Below, in pieces: positions 34,037-59,111 of a DNA stretch of 64,000 nt. This DNA comes from an uncultured Alphaproteobacteria bacterium (GTDB taxonomy: Bacteria; Pseudomonadota; Alphaproteobacteria; RF32; CAG-239). Made by a program: the position numbers and the translations under genes. Location of the stretch: assembly GCA_934254585.1 (NCBI GenBank), contig CAKQLF010000001.1, positions 28,093 through 92,092 on the forward strand, in the 5' to 3' direction. The notes below the pieces were generated by a model. It had not been told where the DNA came from, did no database searches, and saw only the letters and a list, made by a program, of their open reading frames with translations. Position 1 is the stretch's first letter, and each line of letters starts with the position of its first letter.

Positions 34037-34087
34037 ATGAAAAATAAGCTTAGCAAAGGTCTCTCTCTCTCTCTCTGCAAATCCTAA
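34037..34087 (+). CDS. 16-codon upstream ORF containing a (CT)8 tract
   Basis: SD gagga 7 nt upstream. Encodes MKNKLSKGLSLSLCKS. Speculative as a translated uORF. Confidence 0.2.
   Translation: MKNKLSKGLSLSLCKS
34060..34076. repeat. (TC)8 dinucleotide microsatellite
   Basis: tctctctctctctctct read directly. Only such tract in the window. Confidence 0.9.
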
Positions 34088-34475
34088 ATGTCTGATTAAA
34101 GGCATATTTTCTGCCGCTACAGACGTTTTTGCAAGTTTTTTCAGAAAAAATGACATATTAAAAAATAACAAGCACAGCACGAAACTGGCAGGCGGCACAA
34201 AGCAAGCAATTCTAGCACCAGTCATTATAGGCCCTGTGCCTAGAATCTTGTTGCAACAAGGTACTAACCTAGTCAATAAATTTGCCTTATTATTACATAA
34301 GTGTCGGTTCGCACAAGATTCTCGGGACAAGCCCGAGAATGACGGTAGCTGGAGGTGTTGGCTTAGTATTTGTTACAAGTTATTTAATTACCCCTCACCA
34401 GCAGACAAGTCTGCGACCGATAAGCCATCAAAGGGTTTGGATGTCGTGCGGCAATACGCCGTGCTTTTTGAACGA

Positions 34476-34495
34476 CGTGTACAGAGTAGTACACG
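34476..34495. repeat. palindromic element cgtgtac-N6-gtacacg (copy A)
   Basis: Perfect 7-bp arms. Lies within the conserved direct repeat cgacgtgtaca...agtacacgag. Confidence 0.8.
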
Positions 34496-34588
34496 AGTGA
34501 GAAAAGCGCAAGCAGTGAACGGACAGACAAAACATATTAGAAATCTTCTTCCGCAATGTGCGTCAGATGCGACGGGATTTTTAAGCGA

Positions 34589-34609
34589 CGTGTACAAAAA
34601 AAGTACACG
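34589..34609. repeat. palindromic element cgtgtac-N7-gtacacg (copy B)
   Basis: Same arms as copy A, about 113 bp downstream and 26 nt before the pilin-like GTG. Confidence 0.8.
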
Positions 34610-34634
34610 AGCGCGAAAATTCCTAGCAGATGGC

Positions 34635-35282
34635 GTGCAGTACGGTAGAAGTATGATTGAGATGTTGGGCGTTTTGGCCATCATCGCTGTTTTGAGCGTT
34701 GGCGGTATTGCCGGATATTCTAAGGCAATGGAAAAATTCAAACTTAATAAGGCTATGGATGAATACAGCTATCTTATTTATGGGTTGCTGGAACACTTAG
34801 ATGAAATTAAATATTCCACTAAATCCAGAGACGGAAATGATACTCCTGTTGTGGAATTAGCTAATAATTTGAATTTGGTTCCTCCGACATGGACAATGAT
34901 AGCAAACAATCTTAATGTTAGTCATAAAAATTTATTTGAAGACCCATATAACAATCTTTTATCTATTTACTCAAAAAACGGAAATTTGCGTTTTGATTTT
35001 ATTTTAGGCGGTTCGCAATTTAAGGACGAAGGTTCTTGGATAACTGAAAATTTTTCAACCAAATTCTGTATGGAATTGGTAAACAATGTTGTCAAACCAT
35101 TGCATTCTTCTTTGGAATTTTTATTTTTTTACAGGTCAAAAGGAAACTCATCCACTTTTTATGGTGATAAGAATTGTTCTTCCGGACGCAAATGTTTGAG
35201 TGATATCAGTATAAAAGAAGTGTATGATAATTGTAAACGTTGCTCAAAAAAAGAAGTTTGTTCAGTAACTATAGACTTTTAA
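34635..35282 (+). CDS. type IV pilin-like protein, paralog 1 (class-III-signal-like N-terminus)
   Basis: Track ORF 34236..35282. The start is reassigned to in-frame GTG 34635 because DNA conservation with paralog 2 begins exactly there (gtgcagtNcggNagaagtatgat). N-terminus ..G-RSMIEMLGVLAIIAVLSVGGIAGYSKAMEK has Glu at +5 of the hydrophobic segment. The C-terminal Cys motif CSSGRKCL...CKRC...EVCSV is shared with paralog 3. Confidence 0.55.
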   Translation: MQYGRSMIEMLGVLAIIAVLSVGGIAGYSKAMEKFKLNKAMDEYSYLIYGLLEHLDEIKYSTKSRDGNDTPVVELANNLNLVPPTWTMIANNLNVSHKNLFEDPYNNLLSIYSKNGNLRFDFILGGSQFKDEGSWITENFSTKFCMELVNNVVKPLHSSLEFLFFYRSKGNSSTFYGDKNCSSGRKCLSDISIKEVYDNCKRCSKKEVCSVTIDF

Positions 35283-48316: not shown

Positions 48317-48403
48317 GCGCTTGTGGCGGAATCGGTAGACGCTGCAGACTTAAAATCTGTTGGGATTTATCCCGTGCCAGTTCAAGTCTGGCCTAGCGCA
48401 CCA
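48317..48403 (+). tRNA. tRNA-Leu (anticodon UAA)
   Basis: Hand-folded. Anticodon stem GCAGA/TCTGT with loop CTTAAAA. Long variable arm. T-arm GCCAG-TTCAAGT-CTGGC. CCA encoded. One acceptor-stem mismatch. Confidence 0.85.
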
Positions 48404-48409
48404 ATAAAG

Positions 48410-48437
48410 AATGCTTTCCTGACGGAGAGCATTTTTT
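48410..48437 (+). terminator. weak hairpin terminator after tRNA-Leu
   Basis: aatgct...agcatt then T6. Confidence 0.4.
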
Positions 48438-48585
48438 GTGAACAACTAACAACTAATACTTTGATTTTTTTCCGCTGTATAAAGGCGGATTTTTTTTGTT
48501 TTTAACGATTAACTTAAAATCTGTTTTAAAATAGTAAAAAATAAAACATATTTAGATAAAACAATTAATTAAAACGCGGTTTAAA

Positions 48586-48627
48586 GTCCGTTTTAAACCA
48601 CCGTTTAAAACGGACTCTCAAAAATGG
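48586..48627. repeat. left inverted repeat (contains perfect 12-bp palindrome gtccgttttaaa/tttaaaacggac)
   Basis: Read directly. Its reverse complement matches 48726-48766 at about 75% identity (shared core ttaaaccaccgtt...ggactct). Confidence 0.75.
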
Positions 48628-48679
48628 AAAATCAAAAAAATCACCAAACCCGAAAAAATGTTGAAAATATAAAAAGTTA

Positions 48680-48708
48680 TTGCAATATTGGCACCTTTTT
48701 CCTATACT
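48680..48708 (+). promoter_or_regulatory. sigma70-like promoter TTGCAA-17-TATACT inside the IR-flanked segment, facing pilin-like paralog 2
   Basis: The hexamers and 17-bp spacer were read directly. Confidence 0.4.
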
Positions 48709-48725
48709 CAAAAAAACAGCAAAAA

Positions 48726-48766
48726 AGAGTCCAAAAATAACGGTGGTTTAAATTGGACTTTAAAAG
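48726..48766. repeat. right inverted repeat (inverse copy of 48586-48627)
   Basis: agagtccaaaaataacggtggtttaaattggactttaaaag. Confidence 0.7.
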
Positions 48767-48997
48767 AAGAAAAAATAAAGGAGAATCAAAGTGTTAGAAA
48801 ATGGCAAAATGGGGCTTTTAAGACGGGTTTTTGAGGTGATTTTTGGGCACAATGTCATTAATCGGCATTTTTTCAAGGTTATTAGTGAGATTTTGGGTAC
48901 CATTCGCGGGCTCCGACCTGCGAATCTGGATTGCCGGATTACGTCTGGCAATGACAGTAAGGTGGAGTGCGTCACGTTCGGCAATGACTATAGAGTT

Positions 48998-49636
48998 GTG
49001 CAGTCCGGAAGAAGTATGATAGAAATGCTCGGCGTTTTGGCTATAATTGCGGTTCTTTCCGTTGGCGGAATTGCCGGATATTCCAAGGCCTTAATGAAAT
49101 GGAAATCAAATGTTCAAAAAAATATGTTGGCAGAATTGTTAACTAATATGATAAAAATTAGACCTAATCTCGATAAAAAATCTACATCATTTGATAACAT
49201 AACCTATGTTTTTGAGGCTATGGGAGCATTACCGGAAGGAATAACTTATAAAAATAATTATATGTATGATAAAGAAGATAATTTGATTTGGATTGATTAT
49301 GGTTTATCGTCGTGGACTAATGAAGATGGTTCCATTGGCACGATGTTTGCTTATGTTTTACGTTTTAATTATAAAATAGGTACTGGTAATCTAACGGTTC
49401 CGGCTAAGGATTTTTGCTTGAATTTGCTTGAGGCTGCTAAAACTATTGCGGAAGAGGTTGTTTGTGTAAAAACAAATTATAGTGATTCTTCCAGTTGGAA
49501 TGGTTCAGGTCAAAATGTAATGTATACAAAAAGGTCTTTAGAAACGGCAACAATGGCAGATATGCAACAGAAATGCAATATGGTAATTAAAGAAGAGGGC
49601 GGAGTTCGTTTTTCATTAATGCTAAATCCTTATTAA
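48998..49636 (+). CDS. type IV pilin-like protein, paralog 2
   Basis: Track ORF 48791..49636. Start reassigned to in-frame GTG 48998 (MQSG-RSMIEMLGVLAIIAVLSVGGIAGYSKALMK). The C-terminal domain is diverged (3 Cys) and not alignable by eye with paralogs 1 and 3. Confidence 0.5.
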   Translation: MQSGRSMIEMLGVLAIIAVLSVGGIAGYSKALMKWKSNVQKNMLAELLTNMIKIRPNLDKKSTSFDNITYVFEAMGALPEGITYKNNYMYDKEDNLIWIDYGLSSWTNEDGSIGTMFAYVLRFNYKIGTGNLTVPAKDFCLNLLEAAKTIAEEVVCVKTNYSDSSSWNGSGQNVMYTKRSLETATMADMQQKCNMVIKEEGGVRFSLMLNPY

Positions 49637-58218: not shown

Positions 58219-58247
58219 TTGCTAATTTTCAGCAAATTAGTTAGAAT
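58219..58247 (+). promoter_or_regulatory. sigma70-like promoter TTGCTA-17-TAGAAT with overlapping 7-bp inverted repeat (ctaattt/aaattag)
   Basis: Read directly. Drives the structured region upstream of pilin-like paralog 3. Confidence 0.45.
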
Positions 58248-58254
58248 GTTTCTT

Positions 58255-58467
58255 GAGTTGGTTGTAACCGGCTTAGGGCGTCAGAAACCCTTTATTCAGA
58301 TATACAGTCGTTAAGCATAAGCGACTTTAAATATGTATGCCGACTTCTGCTCTTTTGGACGGATGTCGGTTTTATAAGGCTATAAGCACGAAAATGCCGA
58401 GCCGTTTTTTGTATATCTGATACGGTTTCTGAACATCCGCCCGCCAACAGGTGGGTTTTGTTTTTTT
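58255..58467 (+). ncRNA. candidate structured RNA (sRNA or cis-regulatory leader/attenuator) ending in an intrinsic terminator
   Basis: A long imperfect inverted repeat, tcagaaaccctttattcagatatac (58281-305) paired with gtatatctgatacggtttctga (58411-432), encloses about 105 nt with an internal stem ccgac...gtcgg. The terminator cccgcc-aaca-ggtggg plus U-run lies at 58440-67. Confidence 0.35.
58440..58467 (+). terminator. rho-independent terminator/attenuator 24 nt upstream of pilin-like paralog 3
   Basis: Stem cccgcc/ggtggg (one G-U pair) followed by ttttgttttttt. Confidence 0.7.
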
Positions 58468-58490
58468 ATAATTATACAGGTGTTTAGAAT

Positions 58491-59111
58491 ATGGGATATT
58501 TTTACAATCAAACAGGTCGTTCAATGATAGAAATGTTAGGCGTTTTGGCTATTATCGCCGTTTTATCCGTGGGAGGTATTGCCGGATATTCTAAGGCAAT
58601 GGAAATGTATAAAGAAGATAAAGTTATTGAAGAATATAGCTATATGCTGACAGGTTTTATTGAACATTTGGATAATTTAAAGCGAAATAAATATGAAAGA
58701 CAAACAGGTATGGTTGATTTTGCTCTATCTGCCAATATTGTACCATCTGTATGGACCAGACTAAGCAGTGATTATATAAATGATAGCTTTGGAAATAAAT
58801 TAAGAATATATATGGGAACAAGTGGTATTTTGGTTATTGATTTTTGGATGGGTGGAAAAACTAAAAAATTTGATACAAAATTTTGCCGTAAATTTTTAAA
58901 TAAAGTTGCTTTTCCCTTACATCAGACATTAAAGCAAATTGATGTGCATCGTAATGAAAATGGAAACTTAAATGGTCTAATATGGAAAGGAGATAATTTT
59001 TGCAGTGCGGGGCAAAAATGTCTTAGAGATATTACGTTGACGGAAATAGATGCGGCTTGCAAAACTTGTGTGGAAGATAGAGAAGTTTGTGCAGTTATTT
59101 TCTGGTTATAG
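58491..59111 (+). CDS. type IV pilin-like protein, paralog 3
   Basis: Sequence MGYFYNQTG-RSMIEMLGVLAIIAVLSVGGIAGYSKAMEMYK has a 9-aa leader ending in Gly, then the conserved block. The C-terminal CSAGQKCL...CKTC...EVCAV is homologous to paralog 1. Confidence 0.6.
   Translation: MGYFYNQTGRSMIEMLGVLAIIAVLSVGGIAGYSKAMEMYKEDKVIEEYSYMLTGFIEHLDNLKRNKYERQTGMVDFALSANIVPSVWTRLSSDYINDSFGNKLRIYMGTSGILVIDFWMGGKTKKFDTKFCRKFLNKVAFPLHQTLKQIDVHRNENGNLNGLIWKGDNFCSAGQKCLRDITLTEIDAACKTCVEDREVCAVIFWL

Follow-up and report, generated by a model that had tools for sequence, protein, structure and literature searches.

The window, by which we mean the whole 64-kb stretch of DNA that was analysed, has a G+C content of 37%, carries alphaproteobacterial housekeeping genes (ATP12, parAB-gidAB, rho, PPDK), and recurs as identical or near-identical DNA in human-gut metagenomes, Hadza samples included. 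The switch region described here lies between a tRNA-Leu(UAA) gene (48317-48403, + strand), which forms its left genomic context and is followed on the 3' side by two terminator-like hairpins (48406-48437 and 48471-48497), and a pilin-like ORF of 281 aa (48791-49636, + strand). This ORF, referred to as paralog 2, is one of three in the window (34236-35282, 48791-49636 and 58491-59111) that carry the identical stretch GRSMIEMLGVLAIIAVLSVGGIAGYSKA. In the corresponding segments (34641-34730, 49004-49090 and 58512-58600), 28 residues are 100% identical at a DNA identity of about 80-87%, while the 5' regions of the three paralogs are unrelated and their C-terminal domains diverged. Contigs from other assemblies are denoted by L numbers and proteins by P numbers.

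The paralog-2 ORF starts with a GTG at 48791, 7 nt after the strong Shine-Dalgarno motif AAGGAG (48778-48783) in the 5'UTR (48765-48790, + strand), and its product combines a leader of 73 aa (MLENGKMGLLRRVFEVIFGHNVINRHFF...) with a prepilin-type motif (G/RSMIEMLGVLAII) and a globular domain of type IVb-like character. The prepilin motif is located 70 codons inside the ORF and consists of G/RSMIE with a hydrophobic helix; HMM scores were below the respective cut-offs (TIGR02532, 15.3 vs 16.3; PF07963, 13.9 vs 21.2). In an AlphaFold model of residues 70-281 (pLDDT 87), the product has a pilin fold, its long N-terminal alpha-helix of 51 residues lying against a beta-sheet. The first database search alone returned more than 7,000 homologues. 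The prepilin leaders (window 48791-49003; P0012-P0120) are unusually long, with about 70-200 aa, modular, and GC-rich compared to the genome, and contain the peptide modules RPANLDCRI/RVKPEDD and LLRCARNDG. In paralog 2, strains differ by in-frame leader indels of 24, 12, 27 and 3 nt, none of which closes the ORF.

Upstream of this gene, two 30-bp sites with 12-13-bp arms and a 4-6-bp asymmetric centre face each other in inverted orientation. The left site, GTCCGTTTTAAA-CCACCG-TTTAAAACGGAC (48586-48615, + strand; extended arm 48580-48618), includes a perfect 14-bp core, TTTAAACCACCGTT (48592-48605, + strand), and the right site, GTCCAATTTAAA-CCACCG-TTATTTTTGGAC (48729-48758, - strand; extended arm 48726-48764), the matching core AACGGTGGTTTAAA (48739-48752). 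The arms measure 12 nt, or 13 with the flanking C/G pair included, and the centre, (C)CACC(G), is identical at both ends of the switch, but inverted. A repeat search returned the extended arms as an inverted pair of 39 nt with 79% complementarity and a spacing of 107 nt, which is essentially the pair of inverse copies that the original prediction had placed at 48586-48627 and 48726-48766 with about 75% identity; the perfect 12-bp palindrome it had noticed in the left repeat is the left site itself. Within the intergenic region (48404-48790), the top-scoring inverted repeat without gaps has a score of 20, a value reached by none of 500 dinucleotide shuffles (mean 10.3, maximum 16), and is statistically exceptional. 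The 64-kb window holds exactly two matches to the pattern GTCC-N8-CCACCG-N8-GGAC, inverted relative to each other, with an expectation of 0.02.

On the minus strand, a 10-bp hairpin with a T-rich run behind it (48576-48601) reaches into the fixed outer portion of the left site. This hairpin scores as a terminator-like hit in both orientation states and also in other left flanks, and may serve to end leftward transcripts or to insulate the neighbouring genes when the promoter points away.

Between the sites, a promoter scan recovered the promoter-like sequence that had originally been predicted to aim at the pilin-like gene, with TTGCAA (-35, 48680-48685) and TATACT (-10, 48703-48708) separated by a 17-nt spacer (48680-48708, + strand). 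The distance to that gene was corrected: the ORF begins not 290 bp downstream, but at GTG 48791, 83 nt after the -10 hexamer. The promoter matches the consensus in 9 of 12 positions, and the opposite strand holds an equally scoring sequence, GTGCCA-17-TATATT, the -35 hexamer of which is variable among cassette copies. It is therefore conservation, rather than a mapped transcription start, that supports the polarity. In an alignment of 14 cassette copies, the -35 TTGCAA is kept in 13 (TTGCAT in L024) and the -10 TATACT likewise in 13 (GTATAC in L045), and the 17-nt spacing is constant, with 6-7 variable spacer positions. Also almost invariant in these copies are both sites, the 5'UTR with its Shine-Dalgarno motif (14 of 14), and an A-tract-rich stretch of 75 nt on the 5' side of the -35; within the window, the A-tract-rich region at 48616-48679 (+ strand) is a candidate UP element and/or binding region for an accessory protein or the recombinase. 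No better evidence for TTGCAA-17-TATACT as the functional promoter is available than this conservation of the hexamers; from it, we infer promoter activity and the ON/OFF polarity, ON denoting the orientation found in the window, in which the promoter points at the pilin-like ORF.

For a comparison of orientations, we used contigs encoding the paralog-2 protein of the window or its 90-93% identical alleles. The whole region is collinear with the window in L001/L033, L035, L036 and L038. In L011-L018 and L021-L024, the flanks align on the + strand, while the 185-bp element can be aligned in reverse complement only (94-97% identity), with the outer 26 nt of each arm keeping the + orientation. 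At the left junction, the window reads ...CCACCGTT/TAAAACGGACTC and the inverted contigs read ...CCACCGTT/ATTTTTGGACTC; the outer arm and core of the left site are constant and the inner arm is exchanged, with divergence setting in directly after 48605. Considering both ends, the alignment gives ...GTCCGTTTTAAACCACCGTT/TAAAACGGACTCT and ...GAGTCCAAAAAT/AACGGTGGTTTAAA for the window, and ...CCACCGTT/ATTTTTGGACTCT and ...GAGTCCGTTTTA/AACGGTGGTTTAAA for the inverted contigs. The inverted segment is therefore exactly 48606-48738 (133 bp; matched as reverse complement against L011-L025 with the flanks in + orientation), and the exchange point lies within the 14-bp core TTTAAACCACCGTT. As the flanking psd/pssA and PPDK DNA is 97.7-99.4% identical among these strains, with 91.7-94.6% identity for the pilin gene itself, the carriers of the two orientations belong to one species. 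Both orientations, which the original prediction had suggested looking for in sequencing data, are hence present among public assemblies with their breakpoints in the repeat core, and the comparison of these sequences demonstrates site-specific inversion at the population level.

An origin of this picture in misassembly, or in palindromic operator or terminator sites acting without any DNA rearrangement, has next to no probability in our assessment. The cassette is a multi-copy repeat at which many contigs break, as would suit an artefact, but the perfect repeat of 14 bp is far below assembly k-mer sizes, so that the orientation is fixed by junction-spanning reads, and each orientation was recovered repeatedly across assemblers, samples and studies. 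This short core and the recurrence together exclude an assembly artefact. Operators or terminators would leave the reverse-complement homology of the interior unexplained; the operator pair that had been offered as one alternative was dropped, as it fails to explain the inversion.

The ON orientation was found in the window, in four complete contigs (L033, L035, L036, L038) and in two partial ones (L034, L037), stemming from independent assemblies of at least four samples in two studies, and all carrying the window allele. Every other allele or locus is in the OFF orientation (25 complete contigs and several partial ones). The lone window-allele contig with an OFF junction is L040. Its first 141 nt are common to L019 from the same MEGAHIT assembly, the junction is tied to the allele by a single 142-nt graph edge, and the SNP reached is also present in another allele; it is thus a weak hint that the window allele occurs in both orientations. 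A cluster of contig ends is seen at the switch (L002, L019, L020, L025, L037, L039, L040, L054, L055). We considered this clustering as evidence of mixed orientation and rejected it, since a multi-copy cassette breaks assemblies anyway.

We consider it quite likely that 48606-48738 is an invertible promoter (inverton) that phase-switches a type IVb-like prepilin gene. The architecture favoured at the outset, a fimS-type invertible promoter switch, gains support from the inversion of the segment against unchanged flanks of the same species. In the proposed mechanism, a site-specific recombinase encoded outside the window would exchange strands within 48592-48605 and 48739-48752, the identical 14-bp cores of two inverted 30-bp GTCC-W8-CCACCG-W8-GGAC sites, flipping the 133-bp segment between them. 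In the ON state, a sigma70-type promoter would read via the right site, the 5'UTR and the Shine-Dalgarno motif into the ORF starting at GTG 48791; in the OFF state, the flipped promoter would read away from the pilin gene. Since this cassette is also found in front of several further pilin-like genes of the species, we propose one trans-acting recombinase, which would probably set the pilin variants that are expressed.

Rapid, reversible switching within one clone is what we infer beyond the population-level inversion, and here a fixed strain polymorphism has to be weighed, in which the segment was inverted once or rarely in the lineage of the window and the switch no longer works. Orientation correlates almost perfectly with the pilin allele, a picture that a single historical inversion could produce as well, and no recombinase was found in the 64-kb window and the related loci. 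Against this stands the core length: 14 bp are too short for ordinary homologous recombination, so that even a single inversion implies a site-specific enzyme. Further, 14 copies at about six loci have retained the sites, their inverted layout, the asymmetric centre and the promoter hexamers with hardly any change, and such conservation, with neighbouring positions varying, argues for ongoing selection for invertibility; L040, in addition, hints at mixed orientation in the window allele. Taken together, we regard a fixed polymorphism as unlikely.

Copies of the cassette were found in about six genomic contexts, each upstream of a pilin-like gene, and their arms consist of GTCC and eight A/T bases (GTCC-W8-CCACCG-W8-GGAC). 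The copies share the sites, the 5'UTR, the Shine-Dalgarno motif, the GTG start and the first ~28 leader codons (MLENGKMGLLRRVFEVIFGHNVINRHFF), and those with the same sites precede pilin-like genes with the leader MLENGKMG... (L041, L043, L046-L053, L070-L074). Genes for P0103 or P0120 (L046-L053, L072-L074) have dxs, an SNase-like gene, a pheA-type flank or a divergent paralog-1-type pilin gene as left flank, genes for P0062 or P0082 (L070, L071) a DnaJ-domain gene near dnaA, a 313-aa paralog (L041) pheA, and another paralog (L043) an SNase-like gene. Within a single sample (ERZ27287398), the P0103 copy is OFF (L046) while the paralog-2 copy is ON (L033).

The original prediction had also named a MITE, which many copies elsewhere would indicate. 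That we are instead dealing with such a small mobile element with terminal inverted repeats, landed upstream of the gene by chance, appears extremely improbable. Terminal inverted repeats, a non-coding length of ~185 bp and several copies in the species are what a MITE would show, and the copies in about six contexts do exist; however, all of them are located upstream of pilin-like genes, occur in both orientations and are without target-site duplication, the flanks in the window being ...GCGG and ...AGAAG, and the left flanks of other copies ending in GTGG, GCGG or ATGG. At least 14 copies share position, polarity and the downstream 5'UTR, Shine-Dalgarno motif and leader, only one copy is present in the 64-kb window, and transposition does not produce repeat-internal breakpoints. 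No dispersed family appeared in an exact-core scan of 185,579 species genomes, which gave six hits, all unrelated, and in the same scan of IMG/VR all 14 hits were in unrelated coding sequence. A scan of JGI metagenomes returned four related contigs with the same cassette, all with the promoter pointing away, and one further hit by chance. Rfam searches with gathering and E-value thresholds gave tRNAs and chance hits only. With their uniform position and polarity, common leader and two orientations, the copies represent the switch cassette, and the MITE reading was abandoned.

The left flanks differ among L015, L041-L043, L046-L053 and L070-L074, with a border equivalent to window 48578-48580, and the sequences joined to the cassette there are tRNA-Leu, dxs, the SNase-like gene, pheA, the DnaJ-domain gene and the divergent paralog-1-type pilin gene. 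This last context raises the question of a two-way toggle, in which the promoter in its 'away' orientation would drive another target, elsewhere the divergent paralog-1-type pilin gene, and in the window would run antisense to tRNA-Leu, heading to psd. Beside an HI0933-like gene, the promoter indeed aims at the divergent paralog-1-type gene in six contigs (L049, L051, L052, L072-L074). In the window, however, and likewise with dxs, SNase, pheA or the DnaJ-domain gene on the left, it would enter a convergent housekeeping gene from the 3' end in antisense direction, the fixed left border has a terminator-like hairpin, and paralog 1 has a promoter-like sequence of its own. We judge such a toggle to be very unlikely; it extends the invertible-promoter explanation rather than excluding it.

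The identical protein P0103 was found behind four different left flanks, and the left flanks dxs, SNase, pheA, tRNA-Leu and paralog-1 are combined with four different downstream pilin genes. These combinations may be real rearrangements or chimeric joins via the at least 150 identical bases of the cassette. Flank swapping was considered as proof of site-specific recombination between loci and rejected, since at least 150 shared bases exceed k=141 and homologous recombination or chimeric assembly fit as well; one flank-swap breakpoint (window 33963) falls 64 nt outside the site. A genome-wide network, in which a single recombinase flips each 133-bp promoter and also re-pairs left contexts with pilin genes across loci, is a speculative idea that we hold to be rather doubtful. 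If true, it would link large chromosomal inversions with the choice among pilin variants, alongside the candidate (CT)n frameshift switch in another paralog described below.

The arm-spacer-arm layout of the sites suggests a tyrosine recombinase; for enzymes of this class (Cre/lox, XerCD/dif), inverted identical asymmetric centres lead to inversion and not to deletion. A serine invertase may also be compatible with the sites. As originally stated, there is no recombinase gene in the 64-kb window according to a reading of the large ORFs by eye and a Pfam search with 10 unannotated ORFs, and none was found in the related loci, covering roughly 120 kb of gene calls with precomputed Pfam annotations. 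Trans-acting enzymes are normal for multi-locus switches. An IS110-family element (PF01548, PF02371, NF033542) is present in L045 (107-1341), in the leader of a cassette-bearing pilin gene. Its gene was considered as a Piv-like invertase and rejected, as it belongs to a ~1.2-kb insertion in the leader bounded by repeated ATTCGCGGG, a repeat that belongs to a leader palindrome.

Among known systems, multi-locus promoter invertons come closest. To these belong the switches of Bacteroides fragilis, where the recombinase Mpi is a serine recombinase. PMC5386303 describes at least 13 scattered switches controlled in trans by Mpi with a common core consensus, and the systems are alike in their many scattered short promoter segments, in inverted repeats with a conserved core, in serving a gut surface structure, and in a recombinase that is not adjacent to most switches. 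Unlike B. fragilis, the present system is alphaproteobacterial, it targets a type IVb-like pilin family and not capsule loci, its site sequence is unrelated, and the whole cassette is conserved, including the 5'UTR, the Shine-Dalgarno motif and leader codons. A similar size is found in the mpl elements of Mycoplasma penetrans, which are reportedly about 135 bp long with 12-bp repeats (133 bp here). These mpl (P35) lipoprotein genes have one invertible promoter each (Horino et al. 2003 via PMC2268961) and share with the present genes the organisation as paralogous surface-protein genes, each with its own small, independently switched invertible promoter (PMC2268961). Their products, however, are lipoproteins of a wall-less Mollicute with candidate Xer-like recombinases nearby, whereas none is near the switch here.

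In Clostridioides difficile, the flgB switch measures 154 bp with 21-bp imperfect repeats and depends on RecV, a trans-acting tyrosine recombinase encoded elsewhere (PMC5386303); this flagellar switch was first identified since one strain aligned only as reverse complement (PMC5386303). The RecV switches resemble the present one in their very small segments and imperfect repeats, and the same logic of strain comparison by reverse complement applies, but the flgB switch carries no promoter and takes effect in the 5'UTR, once transcription has been initiated, and the RecV targets are without a common core, while the cassette copies here are near-identical. The E. coli fimS switch (FimB/FimE), the textbook analogue, likewise has a promoter on a short invertible element that toggles a pilus or fimbrial gene, and arms around a core. 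It has 314 bp, 9-bp repeats and directly adjacent recombinase genes and, unlike the present cassette, is a single locus for chaperone-usher fimbriae and not for type IV pili. Diversification of type IV(b) pili by inversion is known from the R64/IncI shufflon (Rci, type IVb minor pilin PilV; PMC5430464, PMC9045228) and from Moraxella Piv. There, coding segments are inverted and pilin C-termini swapped, with the recombinase gene beside the sites, whereas here a non-coding promoter flips, the inverted 48606-48738 lying wholly upstream of the start codon at 48791. Hin/Gin-type serine invertase switches have the invertase gene and an enhancer in or beside the segment, and 26-bp hix-like sites with a 2-bp core; here, the segment is non-coding with 133 bp, the sites have 30 bp, and there is no adjacent recombinase. 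Large inverton surveys are available (PMC11602134, PMC11892184), and a literature search returned no description of this cassette or lineage.

The analysis provides direct evidence at the sequence level for DNA inversion as the means by which an uncultured, AT-rich human-gut alphaproteobacterium varies a large type IVb-like pilin family. Much is known of phase variation in Bacteroides, Clostridioides and enterobacteria, whereas gut Alphaproteobacteria have hardly been studied in this respect; the type of switch is itself well known and reveals no new principle. With a compact, highly conserved cassette and clean 30-bp sites, ON/OFF ratios can easily be scored in existing metagenomes, which helps in hunting the recombinase by co-occurrence and in relating pilus variants to hosts, phages and immune pressure.

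Several observations were made on the other pilin-like genes. In paralog 1, an ATG at 34037 with the Shine-Dalgarno sequence GAGGAAAG is followed by a (CT)8 tract (34061-34076), with the ORF continuing to 35282. A (CT)6 or (CT)9 tract puts this ATG in frame with an ORF of 413/415 aa into the pilin domain, and (CT)8, as in the window, leads to a stop after 16 codons; related contigs have (CT)6 (L049) or (CT)7 (L051 and L052). The tract is a candidate slipped-strand translational phase switch, and its pattern points to translation of the long leaders. The 5' region of paralog 3 comprises a promoter-like site (58219-58247) and a leader of about 240 nt (window 58219-58490), with a terminator-like hairpin (58435-58456) and a T-run 35 nt before the ATG; this leader may be an attenuator or riboswitch-like, and had no Rfam match above threshold. 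A 113.8-kb contig (the record of L001), otherwise identical to the window, begins at 34234 within the 5' region of paralog 1, so that here, too, an assembly breaks in the 5' region of a pilin gene. A sister species is 82% identical in the rho region; there, the paralog-2 body is fused to a paralog-3-type 5' region and adjoins rho, not tRNA-Leu. The join is located exactly at the conserved N-terminal coding stretch, at window 49013 (L028, 3552-4107; L032, 3505-4107), and L030 has yet another left neighbour for the paralog-2 body, the genomes of L028, L030 and L032 being without the switch.
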